DNA of 64,000 nt, taken from positions 8,034-72,033 of the forward strand of contig JAYYUG010000097.1 of assembly GCA_036344135.1 (NCBI GenBank), written 5' to 3'. This stretch comes from Pseudomonadota bacterium (GTDB lineage: Bacteria > Pseudomonadota > Alphaproteobacteria > MED-G09). Of the stretch, positions 2,717-60,992 are shown in pieces. The first letter of the stretch is position 1; every line of letters starts with the position of its first letter. A program made the translations under genes and the position numbers. Under the pieces are notes generated by a model. The model saw only the letters and a list, made by a program, of their open reading frames with translations, did no database searches and had not been told where the DNA came from.

Positions 2717-2768
2717 TTAATATTACCTCAAAGGAGCTTAATTTATCACCTTATAAACGAAAAAAATA

Positions 2769-4208
2769 TTAGTCTTTTTCAATACCCAAAGTGTCGAGAG
2801 CCTCTTCGTGAGAAGATTTTGAAATATTGTAAAAGAAAATACATGAAATAGATGCTAGACTTAAAAGGGGTGATAAAATTGCTTGAAAATACGCCAAACG
2901 GTAAATAGGCTGTTGCATTTCCAGTACCGTAGGATTCTTTACATCAAATCCTACAATTTCTAAAAGTATACCAACAATCACCACACCTAAACCACTAATT
3001 ATTTTTTGAATAAATCCATTAGCAGATAAGTAAAGTCCCTCATCTCTTCTACCTGTCTTTAGTTGACCATCTTCGACGACATCAAAAACCATTGAAATCA
3101 CTAGTATCCAACCCGCAGTTCTTAAAAAATAACCTACACATAAAAAGAGAATAATTAACCACCATAGAGCATCTGTTCCATTTTCAGGGAATAGCTGAAT
3201 AGGAACATAAGGGTCTAACAATCTTAACCATAACGGCATTGGTTCTATGATAAGATTTAAAAGGAACAGCCCTATTGCAAAGTTTTTTTTGCTTTTTCCT
3301 TTAGCCAAAGGAGCAGCAAAAAATCCAGCCAAAACGACTGGAAGAGCGATAATAATCGGAAATAATTTAATTTCCTCTGGTGTCCATTGCCAAAAATAAA
3401 TACTAAAATATGTATCTAAGCTTGAAAATATTCCAACATTTAGAGCTAAAATAATTCCGCCAATAAAAAGGATTAACCAATTCCTATTGGAAAGAGATTC
3501 AAATATTTCTTTCCAGAATTGAGAAAATTTAAAAGGCTTTGGTTCTGGCTTAACCATATCGGGTATATGTTTGTGTGTTGAGTAAGCTGATATAAAACCA
3601 AATACTATAATTAAAAAACAAGCCAAAAGACCAAATTTTGGGTATGCATCAGGGTTTAAGAAGGCTCGTGGACCTGAAAATGTTTCGGTTTCAACAAGAA
3701 AGTAAGCTAGCATTATATAGCTCATAATTCCTAACCCCATGTTTCCGTAAAGGACTCCATAACCACTTAAAGTGTTTCTCCTTTCATAAGCAGTAATTAA
3801 TTCAGGACCAATAGCTGCTCTTGGTGTTTCATAAAAAGTAAACAATGTCCTTAAAAGGATTGCTGACACTAATAATTTTATAAAAAGAGTAGATTGGGAA
3901 TTGTCAGAAGGAGTTGAATAAAGATAATAAGCACATAAACCGAAAGGTATTATTGATAGATAAACAAAAGGATGTCTTCTACCCCATTTCGAACGAAAAC
4001 GATCTGACCAGGCACCAACCAAAGGGTCTGAAATTGCGTCAAATACTAAAGCGATAGCAAGTGCGTAGGAAGCAAGTAAAGGCTCAAGCCCTAGAATCTG
4101 ATTAAAGTAAACAAGCAGCCATGATCCAAATAAGACATTTTTAACACCGACCGCTCCTGAGCCCAGCGTATAAAGATGTAGGGTGTTATTTGTAACTTTT
4201 TTATTCAT
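2769..4208 (-). CDS. MFS transporter, glycoside-pentoside-hexuronide (GPH):cation symporter family
   Basis: 12 predicted TM segments; GPH signature D-x-(x)-R-x-x-WGRR-x-P (DRFRSKWGRRHPF) after TM2. Confidence 0.8.
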   Translation of the reverse strand: MNKKVTNNTLHLYTLGSGAVGVKNVLFGSWLLVYFNQILGLEPLLASYALAIALVFDAISDPLVGAWSDRFRSKWGRRHPFVYLSIIPFGLCAYYLYSTPSDNSQSTLFIKLLVSAILLRTLFTFYETPRAAIGPELITAYERRNTLSGYGVLYGNMGLGIMSYIMLAYFLVETETFSGPRAFLNPDAYPKFGLLACFLIIVFGFISAYSTHKHIPDMVKPEPKPFKFSQFWKEIFESLSNRNWLILFIGGIILALNVGIFSSLDTYFSIYFWQWTPEEIKLFPIIIALPVVLAGFFAAPLAKGKSKKNFAIGLFLLNLIIEPMPLWLRLLDPYVPIQLFPENGTDALWWLIILFLCVGYFLRTAGWILVISMVFDVVEDGQLKTGRRDEGLYLSANGFIQKIISGLGVVIVGILLEIVGFDVKNPTVLEMQQPIYRLAYFQAILSPLLSLASISCIFFYNISKSSHEEALDTLGIEKD

Positions 4209-4212
4209 TTAT

Positions 4213-5535
4213 TTAATTTTGTTTTTTTAATTGAGCCTGAATTTTTGAGTGCATCTCTTCAGTAATAGGGTATTTCCATATTATGGCTACAGCCAATAAG
4301 AAAAATATAGAAGGCAAGGTAGAAAATAAGAACTTAAGTCCAAATAACTGACTTGAATTGTTGTAAACATCTGGCCCAGTATTGAAACCGATCCAAGCTA
4401 ATGCAGTTAATGCAATCCATGTTCCAACAGAGCCAGTCATTTTCGAAGTGAATGACCATGAAGAGAAGAATAAACCAGATCTATTCTCTCCGCTTTTTAA
4501 TGTATCAAGGTCAATAACGTCTGCTTTCATAGAATTAGGTAACGCAGCAAAACCACCTGCCGAAAATCCTGTTACTACAGTAATTGGTAACATCCACCAG
4601 AAATCTCCTTCTCCTAAAAAAAGATAGAAAGGATGTGCTAAAGCTATCATTGTAAAACTGCCAATGTAAGCTCTGTGTTTCCCTATTTTTTTTGATAACC
4701 AAACCCAAAAAGGCACAGCTGCAAAATTAGTTAGATAGAAGAAAGTAAGCATATAAATAGCCATAGCTTCTGCTTTTAGAACATAGGTAATAAAGAACAG
4801 ATATAGTGGTGTTGTTATGGAAATAGCAATTCCTCCAACCATGAAAGCCAGAATTAATCTTTTAAAAGGAGCATTCTCTAACATTAGTTTAAAACCTTTT
4901 ATGGGCGAAATAGTTGATGGAACATGTTCTTTGGATTCTGGAACATTAGCTACGGTTAAGAAAACACAAATAGGCATAATAATTACCATAGCAATTCCAA
5001 CAATATAGAGAACATTTGCGCTTCCTCCAAAACCAAAAAATAGTAAAGCTATTGCAGGTATTAATTGAGCGCTTAAGCTACCAACTACTCCCAACATGGA
5101 TCGCCAGCCTGTTATTCGTGATCTTTCATTATAATCAGAGGATAATTCGGCGCCCCAAGCATAATAAGGGATTATTAACATTGTTGTCGCTATTGAAAGA
5201 AGCATCATCCATATAAAAAGATGGGTAGCGCCAGACCCTTCTGGTGGTAGAAAGAGCATAAAAATACTTATCATCATTAAAGGGGTCGCGAGTACTATCC
5301 ATGGTCTTCTTCTACCCCATCTCGTATTTGTTCTATCATTTATATAACCAAATATTGGATCAGTGATGACATCAAAAATACGTACAAGTAGGATGATATT
5401 AGCTGCAAGAATTAAGGGAACACCCATCTCGCCGGTATAGAATTTAGGAATAAAAACTAAAATTGGGAACAAAGCAATATTAATAGGCATTTCTGTTAAG
5501 CCGTAATAGAATAAGGTTGATCTTTTAAGTTTCAA
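4213..5535 (-). CDS. MFS transporter, GPH:cation symporter family (tandem paralog)
   Basis: Signature DRTNTRWGRRRPW; multi-TM; 4-bp gap to downstream paralog suggests co-transcription. Confidence 0.8.
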   Translation of the reverse strand: MKLKRSTLFYYGLTEMPINIALFPILVFIPKFYTGEMGVPLILAANIILLVRIFDVITDPIFGYINDRTNTRWGRRRPWIVLATPLMMISIFMLFLPPEGSGATHLFIWMMLLSIATTMLIIPYYAWGAELSSDYNERSRITGWRSMLGVVGSLSAQLIPAIALLFFGFGGSANVLYIVGIAMVIIMPICVFLTVANVPESKEHVPSTISPIKGFKLMLENAPFKRLILAFMVGGIAISITTPLYLFFITYVLKAEAMAIYMLTFFYLTNFAAVPFWVWLSKKIGKHRAYIGSFTMIALAHPFYLFLGEGDFWWMLPITVVTGFSAGGFAALPNSMKADVIDLDTLKSGENRSGLFFSSWSFTSKMTGSVGTWIALTALAWIGFNTGPDVYNNSSQLFGLKFLFSTLPSIFFLLAVAIIWKYPITEEMHSKIQAQLKKQN

Positions 5536-5619
5536 TTTTAGTACTCTCTAGAATACAGACTACATTTTATTTTCTAAATTGGTAGATCAAATACAAATAC
5601 TAATTAATGGAGTTAGAAT

Positions 5620-6654
5620 TTGAATCTAGATAATAAAGAAAAAAATAATAAATGGCTAAATCAAGTTGTGGAACCAATTCTCGAACCTGATTTACCCATA
5701 ATAGATCCCCATCATCATCTTTGGCCAGCACCATGGGGGAGAAGTAAAATACCCGTAGAATCTTATTATCTTTTAGAAGATCTTTGGAATGATACCCAAA
5801 GTGGACACAATATTGTCAAAACAGTTTTTGTTGAATGCGGCCAGGGTTATTATCTAGAAGGTCCAGAATCCTTGAGACCTGTTGGGGAAACTGATTTTGT
5901 TCTTGGTATAGCTAAAGAAGCTCGGCAAGATACTTCGAAAGCTCAAATTGCTGGAATAGTAGGTCATGCTGACCTGATGCTTGGAAAATCAGTAAAGGAA
6001 GTACTCGAAGCACATCGAGAAAAAGGTGGGGGTCTTTTTAAAGGTATTCGTCATGCAGCAGGATGGGATCAAAACGAAGAAATAAGAAACTCTCACTCTA
6101 GACCTATAAGACACATATATCTTGATGATGACTTTCAAAAAGGTATAGAACAATTAGAGAGTTTAGATATGAGTTTCGATGCTTGGCATTATCATCACCA
6201 AATCAAAGAATTAACTCTATTAGCCAAAACATTCCCAAATTTAATTATAATTCATAATCACTTTGGAGGTCCCTTAGGAATTGGTCCATACGAAGGAAAT
6301 AGAGAAAAGATATTTAGTCAGTGGAAGGAGGATATCTTTGAATTATCTGGTTGCAAAAATGTTGTTTCTAAGCTTGGAGGTATGGCGATGCCAATTAACG
6401 GGTGGGATTGGCACAAAACAACTAAACCCGCCACATCAAACGAGTTAGTGCTTGCTCAAAAAGAATATTATTTACATGTGATAGACTCATTTGGATCGGA
6501 AAGATGTCTATTTGAAAGTAATTTTCCAGTAGACAAACAATCGATATCCTATCCGGTTCTTTGGAATGCCTTTAAGAAGCTGACTTCCAATTTTAGTGAG
6601 AAAGACAAAAATCAACTCTTTTATGAAACAGCGGCTAGAGTTTATAAAATATAA
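5620..6654 (+). CDS. Amidohydrolase-2 family metal-dependent hydrolase (TIM barrel)
   Basis: N-terminal IIDPHHHLW metal-binding motif characteristic of PF04909 (LigI/ACMSD-like); only in-frame start is TTG at 5620 with GGAG 8 nt upstream. Confidence 0.75.
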   Translation: MNLDNKEKNNKWLNQVVEPILEPDLPIIDPHHHLWPAPWGRSKIPVESYYLLEDLWNDTQSGHNIVKTVFVECGQGYYLEGPESLRPVGETDFVLGIAKEARQDTSKAQIAGIVGHADLMLGKSVKEVLEAHREKGGGLFKGIRHAAGWDQNEEIRNSHSRPIRHIYLDDDFQKGIEQLESLDMSFDAWHYHHQIKELTLLAKTFPNLIIIHNHFGGPLGIGPYEGNREKIFSQWKEDIFELSGCKNVVSKLGGMAMPINGWDWHKTTKPATSNELVLAQKEYYLHVIDSFGSERCLFESNFPVDKQSISYPVLWNAFKKLTSNFSEKDKNQLFYETAARVYKI

Positions 6655-6664
6655 TAGTTTAAGA

Positions 6665-7759
6665 TTAACCTGCAGACTTTAAAGGAGCCCATGCAAGCAA
6701 TGTTTTGTCATTTGATTTTGAGTTTGGAACAAGCTTACATCCGCCCTCTTCAGCCATAGCCTTATAATCTAACCAAGATACTACCGCTTCAACTGGAGTG
6801 CCTGGTCCAGAATCAAAAACTAATGGGCCGTAAATATTAGCAGTATAGATCAAATCCTCGTCAGTAACCCTTTGCGTTGCATCGTGCCTAGCTCCAGCAG
6901 GCTCATAGAACCATATGCCTGGTCCATAACCTTCAGCAGGTCCTGCGCGAACACCTAAAGCTCCACTCAATACCAAGAAATCACTTGCACCAATATGTGT
7001 ATGCGGAAGGGCAACACCGTTATGTCGAACAATCATTGAAACAAAACCTGTTTCTTCGCTAACACGCAAAAGCTTGAGACCTACATCTGGCATTGTAGGC
7101 ATTGTAAACCATGGTACATCTCTTGTATCAACAAAATGAGGATGAGAAATTTCTGAAGACAAGACCGAGCCTGCGTCCGAATCCACTAATGTAGCTGCAT
7201 TTGATGACGCAATAGCAAGAGGTTCTCCTGGACCATTATAAGTTTGAGATCCTCTCTCCCAACATTCTGATGATGAATTAGGAACAAGCGAAATATTTTT
7301 CTTTTTAGCGAGGCTCATTAAATCAGTTCCTGTTAAAATCGATTTTAAAGAACCATCTTCTTTTAAAAAGGCTACCGCACTATAAAAATTCGCTAATACC
7401 TCTGCTTCTTCATGAGCAGTAATTGAATTCACTTTAGAATTAGCCGAAATGAAACCCCAAGTACCAGGCGCTAAGATACTTTCTTTGTCTTCTTCAGTAT
7501 AGCCAAGTTGGCCTGATAAGACGAGAAGATCCATACCACCTAAATATATTGAGCTCGGAAATGAAGATCCTTTGTCTAATTTAAAAATCATAGAAAACAT
7601 TCCACTTTCAGGACTTACCCTAATTGGCTTAACAGATAGGCCCGGTACATCTTCAATAGGTATCCAAGGTAATTTATTTGTATCAATGGATCCTTCAGCG
7701 CCATTTGGATTGTGATCAGGATTAAATTGTTCCGTGCTTTCACTCATGTTGTCCCCCAT
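6665..7759 (-). CDS. Cupin-fold protein with two cupin-like halves (possible dioxygenase)
   Basis: Two repeated halves each with His-rich metal motifs (e.g. HNGVALPHTHIGASDFLVLSG, NSKVNSITAHEEAEV); no closer assignment possible by eye. Confidence 0.5.
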   Translation of the reverse strand: MGDNMSESTEQFNPDHNPNGAEGSIDTNKLPWIPIEDVPGLSVKPIRVSPESGMFSMIFKLDKGSSFPSSIYLGGMDLLVLSGQLGYTEEDKESILAPGTWGFISANSKVNSITAHEEAEVLANFYSAVAFLKEDGSLKSILTGTDLMSLAKKKNISLVPNSSSECWERGSQTYNGPGEPLAIASSNAATLVDSDAGSVLSSEISHPHFVDTRDVPWFTMPTMPDVGLKLLRVSEETGFVSMIVRHNGVALPHTHIGASDFLVLSGALGVRAGPAEGYGPGIWFYEPAGARHDATQRVTDEDLIYTANIYGPLVFDSGPGTPVEAVVSWLDYKAMAEEGGCKLVPNSKSNDKTLLAWAPLKSAG

Positions 7760-7878
7760 AAATATAATTTTTAAATTATATTAACTATTCCCATGTGTCA
7801 AAGTTAGGTTACTGAAAATTCAGGAAATTTATTGAAATTTTATCTTTATGTTAAGATCAAAATAAATTCAGATTTCTT

Positions 7879-8316
7879 TTAAATTGAGTAATCTTGAAGC
7901 ATTTTTTTTAGTTCGATAGTATGTTGTTCTTCTTGACCTATCATCGTTCTGGCATATTCTTCTAAATAAACAGAGGCGTTTTCTACCAAATCAAGAAGGC
8001 TTTTGTAGAGATTTAAAGCGTGCACTTCGTGTTCTAAACTTTCTTCAAGAATGTCTTTAATAGAATGTTTGTTGCTTTCTTCTATTGGAGTTATTTTTTG
8101 GCTAGGATGACCATCTAATCCAGTAAGAAGCTCTCCGGCCTGTTGAGCATGTAAAAGTGATTCATTTGCCTGACCTTGAAGAAAGGCAACAATTGGAATC
8201 CTATGAGGACCTGTAACCATAAGGGAGGAATGAGTATAACGAACTACACCCGCTAACTCATATTCCATTATAGAATTCAGAATCTCACATATCTGTTTTT
8301 CATCAATTTGCTTCAT
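7879..8316 (-). CDS. Ferritin-like diiron protein (bacterioferritin family)
   Basis: 145 aa; ExxH pairs (ANESLLH, ESLEHEVH) spaced as in bacterioferritin four-helix bundle. Confidence 0.5.
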   Translation of the reverse strand: MKQIDEKQICEILNSIMEYELAGVVRYTHSSLMVTGPHRIPIVAFLQGQANESLLHAQQAGELLTGLDGHPSQKITPIEESNKHSIKDILEESLEHEVHALNLYKSLLDLVENASVYLEEYARTMIGQEEQHTIELKKMLQDYSI

Positions 8317-9723: not shown

Positions 9724-10143
9724 ATGACTTTTAAAGGGCCGGTTGAAGATAGACTAGCTATACATGAGCTGGTTATGAGTTATGGTGATGCGGTAACTAG
9801 AAAAGACGCAAAAGATTGGGGTAAAACTTGGGCAGAAGACGCAATATGGAGAATTCCACATTTTCCACTCTTAGAAAAAGTTAAGGGACGCGAAGAGATA
9901 GTAAGGCTATGGTCTCAAGTAATGGAAGATTACAAATATATTGTCTTTACGGCAGTTTTGGGATCGCTATCAATTGAAAACGATACCGCTAAAGGGGTTA
10001 CATACACCACCGAAACGGGTATGGATATTAAGGATAATAAATTACGAACACATGGCCAATACGAAGATGAATTTATAAAAAAGGATGGGAATTGGTACTT
10101 CTTAAAGAGAACTTTCTCTATCCTTCATCAGGATCGATTATAA
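9724..10143 (+). CDS. NTF2-like / SnoaL-like (SnoaL_4) protein
   Basis: 139 aa; paralogous (~40% id by eye) to 32562..33035; DRLAIHELVMSY...WAEDAIW motif typical of SnoaL_4. Confidence 0.6.
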   Translation: MTFKGPVEDRLAIHELVMSYGDAVTRKDAKDWGKTWAEDAIWRIPHFPLLEKVKGREEIVRLWSQVMEDYKYIVFTAVLGSLSIENDTAKGVTYTTETGMDIKDNKLRTHGQYEDEFIKKDGNWYFLKRTFSILHQDRL

Positions 10144-10196: not shown

Positions 10197-12668
10197 TTAT
10201 CTTTGGTAAGACAACTCAAGCATCATAGTTCTTCCGGGTTTCATATAGGAATATCTATCAGCTTGGAAGCCGTAAATACTTCCGGCGTTACCACCTGTAG
10301 ATGGAGTATCTGATGCATAGGTTTGGATATACTCGTCATTAAGATTTTTTCCAATAAGACTGAGCTTCCATCCTTGATCCGGAGAGCTAACACTAACGGC
10401 AGCATCAAAAACATGATATGAACCTTGTATTGCATTGGGTATGGTATCTCTCAATACATAATCATCAGAGAATTTCACATTTCCGTTAAGACCCAATTCC
10501 AGTTCACCCCCAATATCGGTAATATAATTGAAACCAAGGTTGTAACGCAAATCTGGAGACATAGCTTTATCACTTCCATTAAGACTTTGTTCCCATAAAC
10601 CTCCGACTTGTGTCGTACATCCTTCTGAAGGTTTTTGACCGCCATAACAAGGACCGCTAAATTTTACATAGTTGGCATCATTATAACCTAATGCTCCGGT
10701 CAATCTAAGACCTTCCACAGAAGGCGGTAAGTAAGTAAGTTGTATTTCAAATCCTTCAGATTCAGTTTCCTCTGCATTCAAGGTTCTGTAGGCAAAAGTA
10801 GCAGAATTAAAGAAGTTTAATTGAAGATCTTCATACTCGTATTTATAGATATCAAACTCAACATTAAGAGCTCCATCTAAGAGAATAGCTTTAACTCCCG
10901 CTTCTACACCTTTTACCGTTTCAGGATCATAAGTGATGTCAGCAATCGGATCAGCATTTAATGTGCTATCAATAGAACCGTTATCAAATCCAGCTGACTT
11001 CCAGCCTTCTTTGTAAGCAACGAAATAAGTAACGTTTTCAGACGGTTGATAACGAAGAGTTAGCTCAGGAACCAATTCATCAAGTTTTGTTTTCGAAGCT
11101 AATACTCTGCCTTCAACAAATAAGAATCCAAACATTGGATTAACATAAGGTTGAGTAAAATAAGAATCCTTTTCTTCCTCAATATAACGCGCACCGACAG
11201 TTATTTGGGTTGTGTCAGACATATCCCAAATCAATTCACCATAAACAGAAATGGTTTTTCCATCTGTTTCAGATACCTTATCGTAAGCCACAAAACGATT
11301 TGACGGATCAGCTAAAGAATTTTCAGCTCCAGCAAAAATTACCTCTTGAATGAAGTATCTTTCAGTGTTGGCATAATACGCTCCTAATGCCCAGTTGAAG
11401 TTTCCTTCGTTCTTTGAAATAACTTTTGATTCTATAGAAAAATTCTCGAAATCATTACCTTCACCAGCAAAACATCCAACACTTGCTCCACCATCACAAT
11501 CAATTACCCAACCAACATTTTGTTCGTGATGGTTCACAATTGTTTGAATAAAAACTTCATCCAAATCCACATTTAAATGCGCGGTAATAATTTTGGACTC
11601 GTAATTTTCTCCCAAATCTCCACCCAATTGACCTGTAAGTGGTAATGCAGCAGCAGGAGTCGTTGGAATAGGATTAGCGCCGCTTCGTCGGTCTTTATTA
11701 CATTCACCACCGCCCACATTCTCAATCGGCATTAAAAAACCAGGATTGTCTGGATTTGCCGTGTTTACGTGAGGTTTTCCACCTAAAGTGGTGCAATCAT
11801 ACCATTCACTAACACCCATGTTTGCATAAGTATTATCTGCAAAAGAGGCTTTTAATTTAAAAAATACATTTTCAGAAAAATTTCCCGCAAGTGTCAAACG
11901 ACCAGCGCTAAGTTCTGATTGGGGTGAATGGCTGGAAACAGGTCCTCTAGTCTCATGAACTGTTGGGGCAAATCCTTGAGATACATCAACCGTTGTATAG
12001 GTTGTTGGTCCTGCAGTATTTTCTAACCATCCTTTATCCATCTCGGAATTAAACAACGCAAGTCGTATTCCCCAATTATCACTTAGTGGAGAAGAAACCA
12101 TAAATTCTGCAGTGTTTGTCTCATATTCAAACTCATTAGCCACCTTAAATCCCCATTCAAGTTCGTCTCCAGGATCATTAGTTGTAATTACAACCGCGCC
12201 TGATGTAGCATTTTTACCGAAATAAAGCGCTTGGGGACCCTTAAGGATAGCAACTTGGCTTACATCAAATAAACCTTCATTGATAACTCTTCCTTGTGGA
12301 AAGTAAACACCATCAATCATGACAGCTGTTGATTGTTCAATACCTAAACTACCTGGACTGGATGCAATACCACGAATGGCAATCTGAACACCACTACCAC
12401 TGCTCAACCTATTGATCTCAAGAGAAGCGGAGCTATTAGCAATATCGTCCAAAGTTTGGAATCCGTACGTATCCATTTCTTCCTCGCTTATAGCTGTAAT
12501 TGCTACAGGAATATCTCTCACTGATTCATCGCGTGCTCTCGCTGTAACAACAATCTCTTCTATGTATCTTGAAAGATTACTAGATGAAGAATTATCCTGT
12601 GCCTGAGTATAAGAAAAACTAAAAATTAAAGAAAAAACAAAAAATAACGAAGGAACAAATCTCATCAC
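10197..12668 (-). CDS. TonB-dependent receptor (complete)
   Basis: 823 aa; signal peptide; TonB box/plug (EEIVVTARARDESVRDIPVAITAI); long beta-barrel with alternating amphipathic strands. Confidence 0.9.
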   Translation of the reverse strand: MMRFVPSLFFVFSLIFSFSYTQAQDNSSSSNLSRYIEEIVVTARARDESVRDIPVAITAISEEEMDTYGFQTLDDIANSSASLEINRLSSGSGVQIAIRGIASSPGSLGIEQSTAVMIDGVYFPQGRVINEGLFDVSQVAILKGPQALYFGKNATSGAVVITTNDPGDELEWGFKVANEFEYETNTAEFMVSSPLSDNWGIRLALFNSEMDKGWLENTAGPTTYTTVDVSQGFAPTVHETRGPVSSHSPQSELSAGRLTLAGNFSENVFFKLKASFADNTYANMGVSEWYDCTTLGGKPHVNTANPDNPGFLMPIENVGGGECNKDRRSGANPIPTTPAAALPLTGQLGGDLGENYESKIITAHLNVDLDEVFIQTIVNHHEQNVGWVIDCDGGASVGCFAGEGNDFENFSIESKVISKNEGNFNWALGAYYANTERYFIQEVIFAGAENSLADPSNRFVAYDKVSETDGKTISVYGELIWDMSDTTQITVGARYIEEEKDSYFTQPYVNPMFGFLFVEGRVLASKTKLDELVPELTLRYQPSENVTYFVAYKEGWKSAGFDNGSIDSTLNADPIADITYDPETVKGVEAGVKAILLDGALNVEFDIYKYEYEDLQLNFFNSATFAYRTLNAEETESEGFEIQLTYLPPSVEGLRLTGALGYNDANYVKFSGPCYGGQKPSEGCTTQVGGLWEQSLNGSDKAMSPDLRYNLGFNYITDIGGELELGLNGNVKFSDDYVLRDTIPNAIQGSYHVFDAAVSVSSPDQGWKLSLIGKNLNDEYIQTYASDTPSTGGNAGSIYGFQADRYSYMKPGRTMMLELSYQR

Positions 12669-12797: not shown

Positions 12798-14144
12798 ATG
12801 AGTGAAAAAAGACTAGAGGAGCGTTCAGCAAGGGTTTCTGGGTCTGCCAATAGGGTATATTCGGAAGATGTTTTAATCACCGGAGATCGTTATACTTCAA
12901 TAGATTTCATGGAAAAAGAGATGGATAAACTGTGGTCAAGAGTTTGGAACATAGGAGGTTGGAGTAATGAAATTCCAAAATCGGGAGACTTTGTTACTCA
13001 CCATATAGGACGTGAATCTATACTAATGGTTCGTCAAACGGATGGTTCTGTTAAAGCGTTTCATAATGTCTGTCCTCATAGAGGAAATCGTCTTGTTCAT
13101 AACGATATTGGTTCAGTCCCGGAATTCACGTGCACTTACCATGGTTGGAAATTTGACCTCGGCGGTACGCTTATCTATGCTCAAGATGAAGAGGACTTTC
13201 CCAAAGGTAACCCATGTGGAAAACTTACTTTATCAGAAATCCCATGCGAAGTGTACGGTGGTTTTATTTGGTACAATATGGATGAAAATTGCTTCCCACT
13301 AAGCGGATTTTTGGGTGAAGTCAAAACCTACTTTGATATGCATGATTTAGAGGGCATGAAACGTATCTACCACAAAGTATGTGAAGTCCCTTTTAACTGG
13401 AAAGCATTAAGGGATAATTTTTGCGAATCCTACCATTTGCCAATGACTCATCCTCAAATCATAGATTACTTTGATGACGATTATAAAAATACTGATTTTG
13501 AACTTTTCGAAACCGGTCATAATTTAATGAAAATGAAAGGTTGCTTACCTTCTCTTCGCGATGCAGGAACATTTGAGATTAATGACAAACTTGAGGCAGA
13601 CCTTCTCAACTGGGGGCTGGATCCTGCTGATTTTGAAGGAAAAGCTCATAACGTTAGAGAAGCTCTTCAAAAACAAAAAAAGAAATTAGGTTCTAAAAGA
13701 GGTTTCAAACATTTTGAGAAAATGCCAGACGCTTGGCTTACAGATGCTTTCCATTTTAATGTTTTCCCGGGCACGTCCATCACCTTCACAGCTGAAGTTG
13801 TCTCTCTTCAGAGGACCGAACCACATCCGACCGATCCAAATAAATCGATTTATGATCATTGGCAAATGGCTTTGAAAGCAGATAATTCCGACAGCCCTGA
13901 AACTAACCCAACGATGTTGGTATCCAGTCCCGAAGAAATGGTTGAATGGGAAGAAGTTGAAAAGACAGTGGTAATATTTGGCGAAGAAACACTTAGTGAG
14001 GTCGCTGATCAAGATTTGGAAAGATCGAGCGGTCAACAACTGGGTTTTCACTCCCGAGGATTCAAGGGTGCTTATTTGTCTGGTCAAGAAAATCGTGTGC
14101 AACAATTTCATAACTTCATTGACCGTTATATAAATAAAATATAA
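12798..14144 (+). CDS. Rieske [2Fe-2S] non-heme iron oxygenase, alpha subunit (alpha-only type)
   Basis: CPHRGNRLVH...CTYHGWKF Rieske motif; catalytic-iron motif ESYHLPMTH; GGAGGG RBS. Confidence 0.9.
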   Translation: MSEKRLEERSARVSGSANRVYSEDVLITGDRYTSIDFMEKEMDKLWSRVWNIGGWSNEIPKSGDFVTHHIGRESILMVRQTDGSVKAFHNVCPHRGNRLVHNDIGSVPEFTCTYHGWKFDLGGTLIYAQDEEDFPKGNPCGKLTLSEIPCEVYGGFIWYNMDENCFPLSGFLGEVKTYFDMHDLEGMKRIYHKVCEVPFNWKALRDNFCESYHLPMTHPQIIDYFDDDYKNTDFELFETGHNLMKMKGCLPSLRDAGTFEINDKLEADLLNWGLDPADFEGKAHNVREALQKQKKKLGSKRGFKHFEKMPDAWLTDAFHFNVFPGTSITFTAEVVSLQRTEPHPTDPNKSIYDHWQMALKADNSDSPETNPTMLVSSPEEMVEWEEVEKTVVIFGEETLSEVADQDLERSSGQQLGFHSRGFKGAYLSGQENRVQQFHNFIDRYINKI

Positions 14145-14247
14145 TTCTCAACCACTAATATAGGATTTTCGAAGCGTGTTTATCCCTATTTCTATTTCCT
14201 TGGATTGCAAATATTAAAGCTTAGTATATCCATATAGATTAAGTATT

Positions 14248-16203
14248 TTAAATTTTTCTCGTTAATTCGACAGCCTCATGAATTGCGCTCATCATCGAGT
14301 TTCGACCACGTACATCACCAATAAGATGAGTGTTTCGATTTGTTTTAGCTAGAGCTTCTGAGAGCTCTCTATTAGGTTGATTGAAACTCACCAAGAATAC
14401 GGTTTTGGCTTCTAGTTTACGTTTTCGTTCTGTAAACAAGACTCCTATTTCTACCTCCTCTTCAGTGATTCCACGTAAATAATGACCGCCAATAAAATCA
14501 AAATCTCCTGACATTAATCGCTCTCTAGCAGCGCCTACTGTGACAGGAGGATATGGAACATTTTGCGCCATTTGTTCCATCCTAGAAACCAGAGTTACGT
14601 GAACGCCTGCATTGAGTAGTACATCAGCTACAGAGATTGATTCAAACGTTCCTGTATCGTCAAATATCACAGCTGGTCCCTCTATTTCTGGCTTTTTACC
14701 AACACCAAATAGACTCCAGGAATTATACACATGAGATAAATCAAACCCTGGTATAGGTTCTGCAGGACTAGATACCTGAAAGCCATCGTCGCGCGGTGTT
14801 GTTCCTGTTGCTATTATGATTTCATCTGGAGAAATTTCTCTGACCTTTTCTTCATCAACCATTGAGTTTAAGTGAACATCTACTGTAAGCTCTTCAATTT
14901 CATCCATTAGATACTGGATAATAGCTCCTAAATCCCCACGATTCGGCGCACTAGCAGCCATTGCCACTTGTCCGCCAAGACGACGAGAGGCTTCGTGTAG
15001 CTCTACTTCATGTCCTCTAATAGCTAATGTTCTTGCGGCTTCCAACCCTGCAAGACCTCCTCCAACTATAAGTATTTTTTTGGAATCAAGCACCTTGTCC
15101 TGAGGATCGAAAGGGATAGATTTTTCTTGTGCGGCAGCGACATTTACTACGCAACTTAATGTGGAACCGTTCATTATACGTCCCACACAACCCATATTAG
15201 AACCTACACAAGGTCGAATCTTACGTTCATTACCCGATCGAGCCTTATTGACTAACTCAGGGTCAGCAATAAGCGCACGAACCATAGAAACCATACTGGC
15301 TTCTCCACTAGCTACAATGGAGCTTGCATGGTCGAGGGTCATTATTCTCCCTGTAACAATTGTAGGTTTTGTGATTCCAGGAGTAACAACTTTATTAGGG
15401 ATCATCTCTACCCCTAGTGGATCATCTGAAGGTGCAATCAATTTGTGAAACCTCCAATATGCACCCATATGAAGAGAAATATAGTCAACTAGAGGATCAA
15501 CTATTTTTGCTATCTCAGCATTGTCTTCCGGTTTAAGTCCACCTGGTACATGGTCTTCATTAGGGATACGAACCCCCACCACAAAGGAACTGTCTTTAAC
15601 TTCTTCTCTTATCGCATTTATAATCTCAAGTAGAAAACGAACCCGATTATTTAATGACCCGCCATATTCATCAGTACGATGATTAGTAGCAGGTGATAAA
15701 AACTCATGAATTAAATACCCGCTGGAAGCATGTATATCTACACCATTCATGCCGCCATCACGACATCGTCGTGCAGCTGAAGCAAATGCTGCGGTAATTT
15801 CACCAATTTGCTCCTTCGTCATTTCTAATGGTATAACTCCTATCATAGGGTTAGGTATTGGGCTAGCTGACCAATTCTCAGGTGCTGCTCCATCAGGAAA
15901 ACTTGCCCCAGCATGATAAATTTGCTGGAACAGCTTCATTCCATAGGGTTTTATAGTAGAAGTCAGTTTTTCGTAAAATGGGATGCATTCATCTGACCAC
16001 AAAGGTAATAGGCCTGGTGCGCTAGGATGTACGCCAGTAGCTTCCAAGGTTGACATACCAACTCCTCCCCGGGCCCTAGCCTCGTGATAAGCAATCAAAT
16101 CATCTCCAAGGGTCAAAGTTGCATGAGGGGTTCTCACAATACGGTTCGGGATTGTAATCCCACCTACCTTTATGGGAACAAAGAGGTTATCATATTGAGC
16201 CAT
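14248..16203 (-). CDS. OYE-like NADH:flavin oxidoreductase fused to FAD/NAD(P)-binding domain (2,4-dienoyl-CoA reductase / TMA-dehydrogenase-like)
   Basis: N-terminal OYE TIM-barrel (HATLTLGDD...QIYHAG); partial Fe-S motif CVGSNMGCVGRIMNGSTLSC; Rossmann GGGLAGLEAARTLAIRGHEV. Confidence 0.85.
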   Translation of the reverse strand: MAQYDNLFVPIKVGGITIPNRIVRTPHATLTLGDDLIAYHEARARGGVGMSTLEATGVHPSAPGLLPLWSDECIPFYEKLTSTIKPYGMKLFQQIYHAGASFPDGAAPENWSASPIPNPMIGVIPLEMTKEQIGEITAAFASAARRCRDGGMNGVDIHASSGYLIHEFLSPATNHRTDEYGGSLNNRVRFLLEIINAIREEVKDSSFVVGVRIPNEDHVPGGLKPEDNAEIAKIVDPLVDYISLHMGAYWRFHKLIAPSDDPLGVEMIPNKVVTPGITKPTIVTGRIMTLDHASSIVASGEASMVSMVRALIADPELVNKARSGNERKIRPCVGSNMGCVGRIMNGSTLSCVVNVAAAQEKSIPFDPQDKVLDSKKILIVGGGLAGLEAARTLAIRGHEVELHEASRRLGGQVAMAASAPNRGDLGAIIQYLMDEIEELTVDVHLNSMVDEEKVREISPDEIIIATGTTPRDDGFQVSSPAEPIPGFDLSHVYNSWSLFGVGKKPEIEGPAVIFDDTGTFESISVADVLLNAGVHVTLVSRMEQMAQNVPYPPVTVGAARERLMSGDFDFIGGHYLRGITEEEVEIGVLFTERKRKLEAKTVFLVSFNQPNRELSEALAKTNRNTHLIGDVRGRNSMMSAIHEAVELTRKI

Positions 16204-16341
16204 TATCCTGCTTTCTAAAAATTAAGGTTACCGCAAGTGTATCATAAAGAATTCTTAGTATGCCTTTCTTTCTTTTGATAATGATTTATTGTAGGTTTAA
16301 TATAACGTGTAAACAACTGAAAATATTGATAGAGGTTAATC

Positions 16342-17697
16342 ATGGGAAAAATGTTTAAAGATCTTGACCCGGACACGATGGTTCGATCGCCAGGTATTAC
16401 TTATCAGGAACTACTTGATACTGATTCACACGATGTTCCTGATGTATTAAGAATCCAATCACCAAAAGATCTTGGGCATTCAGAATTCTCGGTAGAACGT
16501 TACATTTCTAAAGACTGGCATGACAAAGAAGTTGAAAGAATGTGGAAAAAAATCTGGCAATTTGTATGTAGGGAAGAAGATATTGCTGAACCAGGCGACC
16601 ATTATCGTTATGATATTGCTGGAATTTCATTTCTCATTCTTCGTACAGAGACGAATGAGATTAAAGCCTATCCCAATTCATGTCTTCACCGTGGTCGGAT
16701 GCTCAAAGAGTTTGATGGTCACGCTTCCGAATTACGATGCCCTTTCCATGGATTCTGTTGGCACCTTGATGGCTCATTAAAGCATATACCTGCAGATTGG
16801 GATTTCCCTCAGATAGATAAAGAAAATTTTTCTTTACCTGAACTACCAATCGCTATCTGGGGAGGATTTGTGTTTATTAATCCTGACCAGCAATGCGAAC
16901 CATTTGATGATTTCATTAAGGATATGAAGACTCAGTTTGAACGTTGGGAACCAGAAAAGCTATATAAACAAGCGCATGTTGCAAAAATCGTGCCTTGTAA
17001 CTGGAAAATCGCACAAGAGGCTTTCTGCGAGGCCTATCATGTCAGCGGAACCCATCCACAAATTTTACCAAGTTTGGGGTGTGTTAATAGTCAGATCGAT
17101 GTTTGGGATAATTGCGCCCGAGTTATTACACCATCAATGACACCTAGTCCTCTTTTAGATTACGAACTTTCTGAAAAAGATATGATGCGTACCATGATGG
17201 ATCTACCACCGGAAGCCCAGGTTCCAGAATTACCAAAAGACATGAATCCTCGAGAGTTTATGGCGAATAGTAGCAGAGAGGATTTAAGGCCTAACGCAGG
17301 AAGTAAAGTTGATGAATATTGTGATGCTGAAATATTAGATAGCCTCGATTATACCTTGTTTCCAAATTTTCATCCGTGGGGTGCATTTAATAAAATAGTG
17401 TATAGATTTAGGCCCAATGGTAACGATCACCGATCAGCGATTATGGAATGCATTATGCTTTCGCCATTTCAAGGAGAAAGACCGCCTCCAGCTCCCATTC
17501 ATTGGTTGAAAGAAGATGAAAAATGGTCCAGTGCCTTGGGTTTTTTAGGTAAAGTTTTCGATCAAGATACTTTCAATATGCCTAAGGTACAACTTGGACT
17601 AGAATCTACCTACAAGTCAGGAATCACACTATCTGGTTACCAGGAAGGGAAGGTTCGTTGGTTACATCACAAATTGACTGAATGGGTGGGAGAATAA
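16342..17697 (+). CDS. Rieske non-heme iron oxygenase, alpha subunit (paralog 2)
   Basis: CLHRGRML...CPFHGFCWH; catalytic-iron motif EAYHVSGTH; clear paralog of 39763 and 60993 genes. Confidence 0.9.
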   Translation: MGKMFKDLDPDTMVRSPGITYQELLDTDSHDVPDVLRIQSPKDLGHSEFSVERYISKDWHDKEVERMWKKIWQFVCREEDIAEPGDHYRYDIAGISFLILRTETNEIKAYPNSCLHRGRMLKEFDGHASELRCPFHGFCWHLDGSLKHIPADWDFPQIDKENFSLPELPIAIWGGFVFINPDQQCEPFDDFIKDMKTQFERWEPEKLYKQAHVAKIVPCNWKIAQEAFCEAYHVSGTHPQILPSLGCVNSQIDVWDNCARVITPSMTPSPLLDYELSEKDMMRTMMDLPPEAQVPELPKDMNPREFMANSSREDLRPNAGSKVDEYCDAEILDSLDYTLFPNFHPWGAFNKIVYRFRPNGNDHRSAIMECIMLSPFQGERPPPAPIHWLKEDEKWSSALGFLGKVFDQDTFNMPKVQLGLESTYKSGITLSGYQEGKVRWLHHKLTEWVGE

Positions 17698-17939
17698 TGC
17701 CTTCTGTAAAACATCCATTTGACCCAAATATTTTATATGAGCTAGATAAGGATGGCAACATAAGAGTGACCAATGGAGAAAAATTCGGTGTATTTACTAC
17801 TGAAGGTAGGCATATTACAGGAGAAATTCGTGAAGCCGATCCACAATTATGTGTTTGGGTCGGAAACAATCCTGATGTTGAACAACAGCAAGCGAGGGAT
17901 GAACGTTTTACGGAACGTCATGGTTTTAGGAAAAAATAA
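17697..17939 (+). CDS. Small hypothetical protein translationally coupled to Rieske oxygenase (TAATG overlap)
   Basis: 80 aa from ATG 17697 with GGGAGA RBS inside the end of the upstream gene; no recognizable motif, no Cys cluster. Confidence 0.35.
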   Translation: MPSVKHPFDPNILYELDKDGNIRVTNGEKFGVFTTEGRHITGEIREADPQLCVWVGNNPDVEQQQARDERFTERHGFRKK

Positions 17940-18185: not shown

Positions 18186-18524
18186 TTATGTCCTCCTAAT
18201 TCTCTTTTGCTTAAAATCCAGTTCTACTTTGATGTCGGATTTAAGGACCGATTGACAAGCAAGAATATATCCTTCTTTTAATTGTTCATCAGCCAACACA
18301 TATCCGAAATCTGTAAGTGGTCTAATCTTTCCCTCTAACAATTTGCATCTACATGTCCCGCAACTTCCGACCCGACAATAATGTGGCCATTTAATACCAT
18401 TGTCCAAAGCAGCTGTAAGTAATTTCTCTTCCCGTCTTACTTTCAAAGTTTCATTAGCATTTACAATATTTGCCACAAAATGCTTATCTTTTTTTATAAA
18501 AAAATTAAGCACATTTTCAAACAT
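18186..18524 (-). CDS. [2Fe-2S] ferredoxin (plant/adrenodoxin-like Cys spacing)
   Basis: CRVGSCGTCRC...C (Cx4Cx2C...C) cluster-binding motif. Confidence 0.8.
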   Translation of the reverse strand: MFENVLNFFIKKDKHFVANIVNANETLKVRREEKLLTAALDNGIKWPHYCRVGSCGTCRCKLLEGKIRPLTDFGYVLADEQLKEGYILACQSVLKSDIKVELDFKQKRIRRT

Positions 18525-18553: not shown

Positions 18554-18913
18554 TTAAAGTTTAATTACTTCAGGTCTAAGAGACCATAAAATAGCCAATA
18601 TTTCGTCTTTTATACCCTGATCAATATTGTTTTCATCTAAAGCAGCCATCATATCATCAACAACCGCATTGAATTCCTCTTCGGAAATATTCATACTCGT
18701 ATGTGCAGTTATCATGTCTTTACCTGTATACTCTTCAGGCCCTCCAAACCCGTTACACATAAACTCGGTCACTAATCTTATAACTTCATTAGGATCACTA
18801 TTAGCATAACGATTATTAACCGTTGGATTTGAAGTATGATTCTTAAACAATGATGTAGCAATTTCTTTAATTGAATCGGGACCACCAATCCTTTCATAAA
18901 GACTATCAGACAT
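18554..18913 (-). CDS. Truncated hemoglobin (group I trHb, HbN-like)
   Basis: LYERIGG start, GGPEEYTGKDM...H motif matching 2/2 globin signature. Confidence 0.75.
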   Translation of the reverse strand: MSDSLYERIGGPDSIKEIATSLFKNHTSNPTVNNRYANSDPNEVIRLVTEFMCNGFGGPEEYTGKDMITAHTSMNISEEEFNAVVDDMMAALDENNIDQGIKDEILAILWSLRPEVIKL

Positions 18914-18971: not shown

Positions 18972-20120
18972 TTAAGCATAACCAACTTGTTTGTTAATCT
19001 TAGTTGCAATTTCACGCTCTGCATCAGTTGCAAAAGTATTATCCCAATGATCAAGCTTTTTCTTAATTAAAGCATGCCATAAAGGTGGCACAAGGGCTAA
19101 AGTAAATCCAGTAAAGTAACCCCACCCAGGATTGGGTCCTCCAACATCATCCAATTCCCAGAAATGTGTTTCTCCACGAACATGGTGATCGCATTGACGA
19201 CCAATTTCTATGAAAAACCAACTCGTAAAAGCCGTATCATTATCCCAAGAATGACGGTGTTCAATGGGTTTGTCCTTTTCTCGTACTAACCCAAAATGCT
19301 CCATATAGTTAAGAGCTTCCAGCTCAAAATTAGATATAGTCCAGACAAAGAACATGCAAGCAACTCCGACTATACCGCCTGCCCACACAAACAGGATTAT
19401 AGTTGGAAGACTTATTAAATAACCTGTAATCCATTTGTTATCTAATGAGAAAAACGATTTCCCTTGTTTCTCAAGTTTTTCTTGTTCCAACTCAAAAGAA
19501 AATTTTGACTGTCCCATATGTGATAACCAAAAATGTTTGTAAAGACTTCTACCCCTAGGAGAAGTGGCAGGATCATTTTCATGGGCAAGTTCTAAATGAT
19601 GGTTATAGACATGTGCGTAACAAAAATGTGCAGCACCGCTCAACCCCATCATCAATCTTGAAATAGGCCAACCTATATCTTTAGTATGAGATAATTCATG
19701 ACCATAAATTATTCCAAGTCCTGCAAATGCACCTGCTGACAAAGAAGCTCCGTACAATTCAAGACCTGTAATGCCTGTTTGAACAGGTAACCAACCCAAC
19801 AACGTAACAGTCCCAAAATCAGCTCCACTCGTATACTGATAAACTCTCCAAGCTAATACTACTTGTAAGATAATGAATATTGGCAGCATCAAATACATTA
19901 CTAGATTTTGTAATTCTTTTATTCCATAAGACTTTCCATTTTTATCAAATCCAGCACCTTTAGTATGGAAGTTGATCACCAGAGTATCTATAGTAATGCC
20001 AACTAAAAATAAAACAGCTCCTGTCCAAACAAAAGGTCCGCCAACAATGAGACCTAATATCGTGACAGACGTCAAAACTGGTACAATAAAGTATCTAATA
20101 TTAATAAAAAATTTTTTCAT
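18972..20120 (-). CDS. alkB: AlkB-family integral-membrane alkane 1-monooxygenase (fatty-acid-desaturase-like diiron hydroxylase)
   Basis: His boxes HELSH, HVYNHH, RQCDHH and the AlkB-specific NYMEHFGL (NYIEHYGL) motif; about 6 TM helices. Confidence 0.8.
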   Translation of the reverse strand: MKKFFINIRYFIVPVLTSVTILGLIVGGPFVWTGAVLFLVGITIDTLVINFHTKGAGFDKNGKSYGIKELQNLVMYLMLPIFIILQVVLAWRVYQYTSGADFGTVTLLGWLPVQTGITGLELYGASLSAGAFAGLGIIYGHELSHTKDIGWPISRLMMGLSGAAHFCYAHVYNHHLELAHENDPATSPRGRSLYKHFWLSHMGQSKFSFELEQEKLEKQGKSFFSLDNKWITGYLISLPTIILFVWAGGIVGVACMFFVWTISNFELEALNYMEHFGLVREKDKPIEHRHSWDNDTAFTSWFFIEIGRQCDHHVRGETHFWELDDVGGPNPGWGYFTGFTLALVPPLWHALIKKKLDHWDNTFATDAEREIATKINKQVGYA

Positions 20121-20412
20121 TTTATCCTCTCTTTAGTGCTTTCAGAAAACCCTTGGGCGCACAATCTGAAAATCAAATACCCTGCTCTTTGGCGAGCAAA
20201 CCATGACCACACTAAACTTTCGTTTAGCTTTTTACATTTTGAGATTTATAAACGGACCGTTTTTTTGCTTCCTGAGCCACATTGTATCACCACCTTCGCA
20301 CGGTATGCAGGTTGGCAGGGGTAATTCCCCCTCTCAAAATGTACTGACATTTAATGACAGAAGTCTATAAAATGCAACTAAAAATTGTATATAATATTAA
20401 AAAAGGGCAAAT

Positions 20413-21907: not shown

Positions 21908-22306
21908 ATGATGGGTACTGAAGATAAATTTCTCATAACAGAAGTAATGGCAAAATACGCTGCTGCAATAGATGGGAAAGATTTTGAATTGTTCTCGACT
22001 TGTTTTCAACAAAATGTCGAAGTTCTTAGGAATGGAGACAATACTACAGCTATTAAGGGACTTGATGATTGGATATCGTATGTAAAAGAATCTGTTGGCA
22101 AATGTAAATTTACTCATCACTTGCTCAGCATACCATTAATTCAGAAAGATGGTCAGTTAGCAAAAGTTAGAACTAACTTCAAACTCTTCACTCGCTATAT
22201 TGAACCTGAGGGAGAAATTGCGGATTTTTTTGGTTTCTATGAGACAAAAATGATCAAAGAAATAGACCAATGGAAAATAACACAACACAACTTGAATTTT
22301 TTCTAA
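21908..22306 (+). CDS. NTF2-like / SnoaL-like protein
   Basis: 132 aa, AKYAAAIDGKDFELFSTCF pattern typical of SnoaL-like cone fold; 4 nt downstream of DUF1289 gene. Confidence 0.5.
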   Translation: MMGTEDKFLITEVMAKYAAAIDGKDFELFSTCFQQNVEVLRNGDNTTAIKGLDDWISYVKESVGKCKFTHHLLSIPLIQKDGQLAKVRTNFKLFTRYIEPEGEIADFFGFYETKMIKEIDQWKITQHNLNFF

Positions 22307-60815: not shown

Positions 60816-60992
60816 AAGCAGACTCCTTACTCATAATTTTAATCATAATTTTCCTTATAGCTAATTATATTTTATTCCAACTCAATAGTACATATGAGAA
60901 AAAGCGTATGATTAGCAAATATTTTACAAAATAAAGTGTTGTTGTTAATATCGATGGTGCTGTTGTCAAGATGGCTGGGGGAATCTAAAACC

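Follow-up and report, generated by a model that had tools for sequence, protein, structure and literature searches.

We examined an oxygenase locus at positions 12798-17939 of a 64-kb stretch of alphaproteobacterial DNA from contig JAYYUG010000097.1 (the whole stretch is called the window here), in which two Rieske oxygenase alpha genes flank the gene of a large OYE-family flavoprotein. We consider it probable that these genes do not form one enzyme system, but belong to three independent functional modules that adjoin one another in a catabolic island rich in oxygenases, from a marine, Rhodobiaceae-like alphaproteobacterium of low GC content, with the Rieske centres drawing their electrons in trans. 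The locus holds four open reading frames (ORFs), not three. Rieske1 (12798-14144, forward strand, 448 aa) and Rieske2 (16342-17697, forward strand, 451 aa) each contain the Pfam domains Rieske and Ring_hydroxyl_A. The flavoprotein (14248-16203, reverse strand, 651 aa) contains Oxidored_FMN (203.6 bits) and Pyr_redox_2, and a small ORF (17697-17939, forward strand, 80 aa) has no match in Pfam or NCBIfam. The flavoprotein gene is convergent with Rieske1 across a gap of 103 bp and divergent from Rieske2 across 138 bp. The preliminary description had correctly placed two Rieske genes around a 651-aa OYE/FAD flavoprotein in these orientations, and had left the 80-aa ORF within the same span unmentioned.

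The conservation of each gene's surroundings in other genomes argues against a single unit. For the flavoprotein we looked at distances of up to 10 kb in 80 genome loci around orthologues of 59-95% identity, from Alpha- and Gammaproteobacteria, Acidimicrobiia and Chloroflexota. Any Rieske gene was present in 12-13 of these loci, and besides two loci from close relatives the Rieske genes were Rieske2-like paralogues of 35-51% identity. The more frequent neighbours were short-chain dehydrogenases/reductases (SDRs; 34-35 loci), P450s (28), acyl-CoA dehydrogenases (21) and enoyl-CoA hydratases (19), with luciferase-like monooxygenases in 12 loci and KstD-like flavoproteins in seven. The operon around the flavoprotein varies by lineage: acyl-CoA dehydrogenase-flavoprotein-P450 in marine Acidimicrobiia, P450-flavoprotein in Chloroflexota, and flavoprotein-VOC-enoyl-CoA hydratase-acyl-CoA dehydrogenase-hydrolase in several gammaproteobacteria. 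The reverse test covered 80 metagenome loci around Rieske2 orthologues of 58-80% identity, and none of them contained the flavoprotein. It is likewise absent from the loci of Rieske1 orthologues in four other contexts. In the closest genome, a Rhodobiaceae metagenome-assembled genome (L009) with approximately 95% protein identity, Rieske2 is separated from the flavoprotein by an extra Rieske gene. The juxtaposition of the three genes is thus a local feature, and not a conserved system.

The most novel element of the locus is the conserved 80-aa partner of Rieske2. The ATG of the small ORF shares one base with the Rieske2 stop codon (TAATG) and is preceded by GGGAG just upstream; the ORF is predicted to be translationally coupled to Rieske2. 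Room for a downstream gene was available in 71 of the 80 Rieske2-orthologue loci, and in 69 of these a homologue of the small ORF immediately follows the Rieske2 gene in the same orientation. Homologues of the small protein form 130 clusters at E<=1e-3 among 1.84 billion representative proteins. Nearly all are stand-alone proteins of 60-110 aa, they correspond to no Pfam family, and they share the core HPF..x..LYE..DGN(I/V)RV..G..G.F...G....G.(I/L)R.ADPQ(L/M)C.W. The 80-aa protein is predicted to fold into a five-strand beta-meander with one helix, and a structural search with it returned no match. Rieske2 itself is strongly conserved and has 3579 relatives at E<=1e-10, including one 73%-identical cluster found on 177 contigs, and its family is common in marine and freshwater metagenomes. 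Its gene contexts vary, with P450s, acyl-CoA dehydrogenases and MFS or TRAP transporters among them. The pair is kept from Rhodococcus to marine alpha- and gammaproteobacteria. In the cultured Rhodococcus sp. USK13 (gene pair JQT59_RS01425 and JQT59_RS01420), an alpha gene 45% identical to Rieske2 overlaps by 4 nt with an ORF of 94 aa, whose product shares 37% identity with the small protein.

Three Rieske2-like paralogues from different taxa (L009 7908-9458, L047 240-1796 and L056 15255-17609; about 50% identity) carry the small-protein sequence as an in-frame insertion of approximately 70 residues in the catalytic domain. The insertion occupies roughly residues 278-347 of the paralogues, between stretches that align to Rieske2 at about residue 270 and about residues 290-300. 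The L009 paralogue sits between the Rieske2 orthologue and the flavoprotein gene, on the strand of the latter. Such a pattern, with one sequence split off or inserted, is a classic sign of physical association between chains. The alpha chain and the small chain are probably associated physically, and the site at which the paralogues carry the insertion points to a surface loop of the catalytic domain, around Rieske2 residues 264-290, as the likely place of the small chain. That Rieske2 and the 80-aa protein together represent a Rieske oxygenase of a new, two-chain kind, whose small beta-meander protein binds the catalytic domain and is without counterpart among known Rieske components, strikes us as an evenly balanced proposition.

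Two composite proteins were left out of this assessment. One (P0389), which joins an alpha chain to a C-terminal small domain, had been considered as evidence of fusion and is likely a frameshift artefact, the end of its alpha part being scrambled. The other (P0447) combines an N-terminal SnoaL_4 domain with a small-protein domain at residues 185-236; it is a single case from a high-GC assembly, which might connect both sorts of accessory protein or might be a read-through artefact.

Rieske1, which is 26% identical to Rieske2, keeps different company. Upstream of it lie a gene for a SnoaL_4 protein of the NTF2 fold (9724-10143, forward strand, 139 aa; Pfam SnoaL_4, 68.8 bits) and one for a TonB-dependent outer-membrane receptor (10197-12668, reverse strand, 823 aa; Pfam Plug and TonB_dep_Rec_b-barrel). 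Orthologues of Rieske1, receptor and SnoaL_4 are co-conserved in loci L003, L175 and L176, with identities of 73/59/61%, 74/59/61% and 57/48/45% respectively, amid otherwise unrelated housekeeping contexts, and receptor orthologues (48-59% identity) adjoin Rieske1 orthologues in four unrelated contexts. The trio stands alone between the rnf operon and metG in two genomes. In another, the three genes follow the order receptor-SnoaL_4-Rieske1 on a single strand, with gaps of 79 and 20 bp. A cupin gene whose product is 55% identical to the ChrR-type cupin of the window was also seen near the trio in L175.

The Rieske1 family (663 relatives at E<=1e-10, all with generic names) also occurs in sphingomonads, Emcibacter and Niveispirillum. 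The Emcibacter locus combines the receptor with two Rieske1-type genes. On sphingomonad plasmids (L093 and L094), Rieske1-like and Rieske2-like genes (37-44% identity) are clustered with a TonB-dependent receptor, NTF2 genes, SDRs and a P450; several of the NTF2-family genes abut or overlap Rieske alpha genes, and where the small ORF would be expected there is a ThuA-domain gene. On the L094 plasmid, from Croceicoccus marinus, positions 1654-7812 beside the Rieske/NTF2/SDR cluster encode an FAD oxidoreductase, a TIM-barrel protein, DUF6379, an MFS transporter and a TonB-dependent receptor. We take this set to resemble C-glycoside deglycosidase loci, a likeness that would be a hint that the sphingomonad relatives act on plant polyphenols. 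Literature searches on the pNL2 Rieske clusters, on tomatidine-degrading Sphingobium, on the combination of Rieske, TonB and SnoaL genes and on 6L6J turned up no assignment of function.

The SnoaL_4 protein of the window had no match to Ring_hydroxyl_B at E<=1, and its sequence matches in the PDB are uncharacterised NTF2 proteins and LinA only. A role as beta subunit is therefore only a possibility. The protein could be a cryptic, beta-like subunit of Rieske1, or it could be a downstream enzyme. Conceivably, Rieske1-type enzymes are tied to TonB-dependent uptake, with the receptor as the presumed uptake component, and have SnoaL_4 proteins of this kind as beta subunits that have diverged strongly.

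The relation of both Rieske proteins to reference families was judged by profile scores, phmmer ranks against the PDB, Foldseek ranks and motif alignment. Of the NCBIfam models, GbcA (NF058607) fits both proteins best; it scores 135.2 bits with Rieske1 and 100.8 bits with Rieske2 against a cut-off of 670 and covers the N-terminal half only. The HcaE model reaches 124 and 75 bits respectively against a cut-off of 830, and neither protein approaches any NCBIfam equivalog cut-off. In sequence searches of the PDB, only the N-terminal ~200 residues align. Rieske1 matches biphenyl and benzene dioxygenases best (119-115 bits, with BphA1 at 119), followed by CntA (105) and Stc2 (86), whereas the top match of Rieske2 is CntA at 85 bits. 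DdmC matches Rieske1 marginally (22 bits, E 5.6e-4) and KshA matches Rieske2 marginally (21 bits, E ~1e-3); Rieske1 has no KshA match at E<=1e-3. Foldseek searches with the AF2 model of Rieske2 (pLDDT 89.6) ranked CntA (TM 0.62-0.64), 3n0q (0.63) and Stc2 (0.61-0.62) highest, with NagG, TPADO, BPDO and NDO close behind at 0.57-0.62, all at 15-20% identity.

Both Rieske families possess the Rieske motif CxH...CxxH and a 2-His-1-carboxylate iron site. In Rieske1 these read CPH...CTYH and F-C-E-S-Y-H...H, and in Rieske2 numbering the residues C114, H116, C133, H136, F228, E230, H233, H238 and D409 are invariant in 44 sequences drawn from both families. The iron site of Rieske2 aligns with that of CntA without a gap (F228/Y203, E230/E205, H233/H208 and H238/H213), and the gapless motif F-x-E-x-x-H, with a bridging Glu of the CntA type, is found in Rieske1 and Rieske2 alike. 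The bridging role of CntA E205 has been described previously (PMC7948474). Alignment with Rhodococcus NDO requires a one-residue gap and places Asp at the bridging position. F228 does not discriminate between these classes, because NDO also has Phe at the position of CntA Y203. Some group V members carry a Cys-x-x-Cys pair beside the iron site (PMC10952381). The CntA pair Cys206/Cys209 is absent here: Rieske2 has Ala and Val, and Rieske1 reads C-E-S-Y-H-L. Profile scores and the bridging-Glu motif for both proteins, together with the fold for Rieske2, therefore identify group V, with CntA, GbcA and Stc2, as the closest known relatives. Judged from sequence and predicted structure, however, both proteins appear to lie outside every characterised family, and the margin of group V over the ring-hydroxylating classes is small.

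The flavoprotein combines an OYE TIM barrel with a cluster motif of three Cys, a dinucleotide-binding domain with the motif GGGxAGLE, and a third domain that has no Gly-rich motif. Full-length alignments were obtained with 6l6j (223 bits), FadH (222), histamine dehydrogenase (205), naphthoyl-CoA reductase (198) and trimethylamine dehydrogenase (TMADH; 176). Among NCBIfam models, mycofactocin OYE_2 ranks first (447 bits; cut-off 793), and the BaiCD model, which comes next, matches the entire protein at 350.2 bits without reaching its cut-off of 825. The cluster motif, which had been recognised previously as a partial Fe-S motif, reads C332-x2-S335-x3-C339...C351 and so holds three of the four Cys present in 6l6j, FadH, histamine dehydrogenase and naphthoyl-CoA reductase. 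Position 335 is Ser in 21 of 32 aligned family members and Thr in the remaining 11; Cys was found in none. The three-Cys motif with Ser or Thr characterises the family throughout, in four phyla, and suggests either a [3Fe-4S] cluster or a ligand other than Cys. We know of no described precedent for a three-Cys site in enzymes of the FadH/TMADH type.

Other features of the flavoprotein bear on its partners and substrate. The Cys that links FMN in the PHC motif of TMADH and histamine dehydrogenase is missing, the corresponding residues being P-H-A-T in our protein and H-G/A-T in the family. The last third aligns with 6l6j, histamine dehydrogenase and naphthoyl-CoA reductase, whereas the FadH alignment ends at residue 473. 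An invariant DDTG(T/S)FE, as in histamine dehydrogenase and 6l6j, stands in place of a second Gly-rich dinucleotide motif. Across phyla, the OYE active-site stretch DIHASSGYLIHEFLSP hardly varies. Large OYE-family enzymes with FMN, FAD and Fe-S serve as ketosteroid delta4-(5beta)-dehydrogenases in aerobic bile-acid degraders (PMC8399759). In view of these known enzymes, and of neighbourhoods rich in P450, SDR, acyl-CoA dehydrogenase and enoyl-CoA hydratase genes, the flavoprotein most likely oxidises or reduces a C=C bond beside a carbonyl or thioester in a catabolic pathway, the direction and the substrate both being deductions from this comparison.

Among ORFs of at least 150 aa across the window, and among smaller ORFs around the locus, we found no ferredoxin reductase. 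The only small electron carrier near the locus is a plant-type [2Fe-2S] ferredoxin (18186-18524, reverse strand; Pfam Fer2, 62.7 bits), which lies 247 bp past position 17939, beyond the span covered by the preliminary description, and whose NCBIfam matches are the ferredoxin domains of GbcB, BenC and PaaE. It is the third and last gene of an operon that also encodes a bacterial globin (18554-18913, reverse strand) and an AlkB-like membrane di-iron protein with NYMEHFGL and CDHH motifs (18972-20120, reverse strand), under the control of an S-adenosylmethionine (SAM) riboswitch of the SAM-I/IV type (20251-20347, reverse strand; 51.1 bits against a gathering score of 41.1). Because it closes the operon of the alkB-like and globin genes, the ferredoxin could serve the Rieske enzymes only in trans, and we rejected dedication to them as the default assumption. 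An AlkB-type hydroxylase, a globin and a ferredoxin make up a gene set that is out of the ordinary for a SAM riboswitch. A terminator-like hairpin lies between the riboswitch and the AlkB-like gene (20200-20181, reverse strand), and the same riboswitch/AlkB-like/globin/ferredoxin arrangement is found in L009.

The wider window, which has a G+C content of 31-45% and an exact match in a marine metagenome scaffold, is rich in oxidative enzymes. In total it encodes four Rieske alpha proteins, three SnoaL_4 proteins, a P450, a Baeyer-Villiger monooxygenase (BVMO), the AlkB-like protein, SDRs and an acyl-CoA dehydrogenase. The P450 gene (8426-9589) lies upstream of Rieske1, and the block that it forms with the SnoaL_4 and receptor genes is flanked by genes for a ChrR-type double cupin and a ferritin-like protein (6665-7759 and 7879-8316, both on the reverse strand). 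Past the riboswitch follow genes for an SDR, EthD, DUF1289, a second SnoaL_4 protein, a BVMO-like flavoprotein, an acyl-CoA dehydrogenase, a GST and a copper amine oxidase. The SnoaL_4 genes of the NTF2 fold (9724-10143, 21908-22306 and 32562-33035) are dispersed among the oxygenase genes. A third Rieske alpha gene (39763-41175, forward strand), 40% identical to Rieske2, has no small ORF downstream, and the fourth (60936-62417, forward strand) overlaps by 4 nt with an AUDH_Cupin-like ORF (62414-63295). Different alpha paralogues are thus followed by different, closely coupled genes. A promoter scan returned no more sites than in shuffled sequence, so that the operon boundaries given here rest on gene spacing.

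Several points weigh against three separate modules. In approximately 15% of loci the flavoprotein does have Rieske2-like paralogues (35-51% identity) in its vicinity, at times directly adjacent (L016, L020 and L021), and the shared, divergent 138-bp intergenic region means that flavoprotein and Rieske2 could be co-regulated in this organism. The Rieske1 trio was seen in only about seven independent loci, and physical contact of the alpha chains with the small protein or with SnoaL_4 is presumed. In addition, the term 'catabolic' is taken from gene context. Weighing these points, we nonetheless prefer three modules to the single systems that the locus could also suggest. The preliminary description had likened it to a quaternary-amine or methoxy demethylase system, recalling the formaldehyde-releasing systems Stc2/Stc4 and GbcAB/CntAB. 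In such a system, the Rieske enzymes would remove methyl groups as formaldehyde and the flavoprotein would be the next N-demethylase, like Stc4, HpbA or DgcA. GbcA is indeed the NCBIfam model that both Rieske proteins match best, the Rieske2 model comes closest in structure to CntA and Stc2, and both proteins share the bridging Glu and the gapless iron motif of CntA. The C-terminal third of the flavoprotein, moreover, aligns with histamine dehydrogenase and 6l6j, not with FadH, and like the amine dehydrogenases it lacks a second Gly-rich motif. The likeness to CntA, GbcA and Stc2 thus holds for closest relatives by profile, fold and motif, but not for family membership, given scores of 135 and 101 bits against 670, an identity of 17-20% and the missing Cys206/Cys209 pair. 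Among the window ORFs scanned there is no CntB/GbcB-type reductase, betaine transporter or C1/folate gene, and the neighbours are not genes of betaine or C1 metabolism. At the position of the FMN-linking Cys of amine dehydrogenases, the flavoprotein has Gly/Ala, and in other genomes it is accompanied by genes for P450s, SDRs, acyl-CoA dehydrogenases and enoyl-CoA hydratases. Adjacency is not kept among orthologue loci, and the counts above (0 of 80 and 12-13 of 80) are at odds with a three-gene system of either type. A methoxy demethylase finds little footing in the marginal matches to the VanA/DdmC and KshA classes. We regard a demethylase system as highly improbable. The statement that both oxygenases are alpha-only, with neither a beta subunit nor a ferredoxin reductase adjacent, is accurate as regards Ring_hydroxyl_B and the reductase; it passed over the conserved partner genes of both, the 80-aa ORF and SnoaL_4. 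We concur that the substrate is not readable from sequence.

The absence of a ferredoxin reductase from the ORFs scanned in the window gives some appeal to the idea that the flavoprotein itself is the missing electron-transfer partner, with its Fe-S cluster reducing Rieske centres here and P450s in other genomes. A P450 accompanies it in 28 of the 80 loci, often in one operon, Rieske genes do so in 12-13, and in the window it is divergently placed beside Rieske2. However, the near-invariant DIHASSGYLIHEFLSP is easier to reconcile with a small-molecule substrate that has been conserved than with a role in electron transfer alone, and a second dinucleotide-binding Gly motif for NAD(P)H is lacking. 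Not one of the 80 Rieske2 orthologues keeps the flavoprotein nearby, and by a rough estimate a neighbourhood rate of about 15% is what paralogue density (four alpha genes in 64 kb) would give by chance. Such a role appears distinctly unlikely to us. Somewhat less so, while still unlikely, is a cluster for the degradation of steroid- or terpenoid-like alicyclic compounds, with the flavoprotein resembling a 5beta-delta4-ketosteroid dehydrogenase and the Rieske enzymes acting as ring or side-chain hydroxylases in place of KshA. It is favoured by the existence of OYE-family ketosteroid delta4-(5beta)-dehydrogenases and the implication of TonB-dependent receptors in steroid uptake (PMC8399759), by the full-length BaiCD match of 350 bits, by KstD-like genes near the flavoprotein in seven loci, and by the P450, BVMO, SDRs, NTF2-fold proteins and acyl-CoA dehydrogenase of the window. 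Against it, the BaiCD cut-off is 825 bits, KshA matches Rieske2 marginally (E ~1e-3) and Rieske1 not at all at E<=1e-3, and canonical steroid-core genes (kstD, hsaA-D and ipdAB equivalents) were not seen in the window; moreover, the Rieske1 trio is also found by itself amid housekeeping genes.

We are thus able to propose how three separate modules might operate. In the first, the TonB-dependent receptor would import a substrate too bulky or too scarce to enter through porins, which Rieske1 would oxygenate, while the NTF2-fold SnoaL_4 protein would either be a beta-like structural subunit or act on the product. In the second, Rieske2 and the 80-aa chain would form a two-chain oxygenase, with the small chain docked on the catalytic domain. 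In the third, the flavoprotein, as an Fe-S flavoenzyme of the FadH/TMADH class, would act on an enone or enoyl-thioester in P450- or beta-oxidation-like pathways, not as a Rieske partner, and would exchange electrons with an external partner via its cluster. The Rieske centres would be reduced in trans by a ferredoxin and a reductase encoded elsewhere. From the company of these genes, we infer substrates that are hydrophobic or alicyclic rather than betaines.

These distinctions matter, as reading the locus as a demethylase system would have put three unrelated gene families in the wrong roles. If our reading is correct, the Rieske2 pair marks a widespread, uncharacterised oxidation step in the turnover of marine organic matter, the first module provides a compact link from outer-membrane uptake directly to oxygenation, and the flavoprotein family comprises cross-phylum, FadH-like flavoenzymes with a three-Cys cluster site. 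All three units would belong to the poorly understood oxidation repertoire with which oligotrophic bacteria address dissolved organic matter. A Rieske2-type pair exists in a cultured Rhodococcus, and experiments are therefore feasible.

Finally, the modules can be compared with known systems. With the group V enzymes CntA, GbcA and Stc2, the Rieske proteins share the combination of Rieske and Ring_hydroxyl_A domains without a Ring_hydroxyl_B gene, the bridging Glu and the spacing F/Y-x-E-x-x-H-x4-H. They differ in their low identity (17-20%), in a TM of 0.61-0.64 that is barely above that of BPDO, NDO and TPADO (0.57-0.62), and in lacking both the Cys206/Cys209 pair and an adjacent FNR-type reductase (CntB/GbcB/Stc3). 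Each alpha gene here is accompanied by a conserved accessory gene, for the 80-aa protein or for SnoaL_4, and the gene context is one of TonB-dependent receptor, P450 and BVMO, not of betaine catabolism. The alpha3beta3 dioxygenases (biphenyl, naphthalene and phenylpropionate) resemble Rieske1 in providing its top phmmer matches over the N-terminal ~200 residues and in the conservation of an NTF2-fold gene beside it. The beta subunits of these dioxygenases also have the NTF2 fold, with a typical length of about 170-190 aa. The proteins described here differ in the bridging residue, which is Glu and not Asp, and in a motif one residue shorter; the SnoaL_4 protein, of ~140 aa, does not match Ring_hydroxyl_B, and a cognate operon of ferredoxin and reductase is lacking.

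The flavoprotein shares with FadH and the TMADH/histamine-dehydrogenase class a three-part architecture, full-length alignments of 176-223 bits and the first motif GGGxAGLE. It departs from this class in its three Cys with Ser/Thr and in lacking the FMN-linking Cys. FadH would bind NADPH where the flavoprotein carries DDTG(T/S)FE, and the third domain of the latter aligns with 6l6j and histamine dehydrogenase. Its active-site stretch H-A-S-S-G-Y is replaced by other residues in each of FadH, histamine dehydrogenase and naphthoyl-CoA reductase. With the 5beta-delta4-ketosteroid dehydrogenases and BaiCD it has in common the large OYE-family format with FMN, FAD and Fe-S, a presumed place in oxidative catabolism (PMC8399759) and a full-length BaiCD match, from which it is set apart by a score of 350 bits against 825 and by a different cluster motif.

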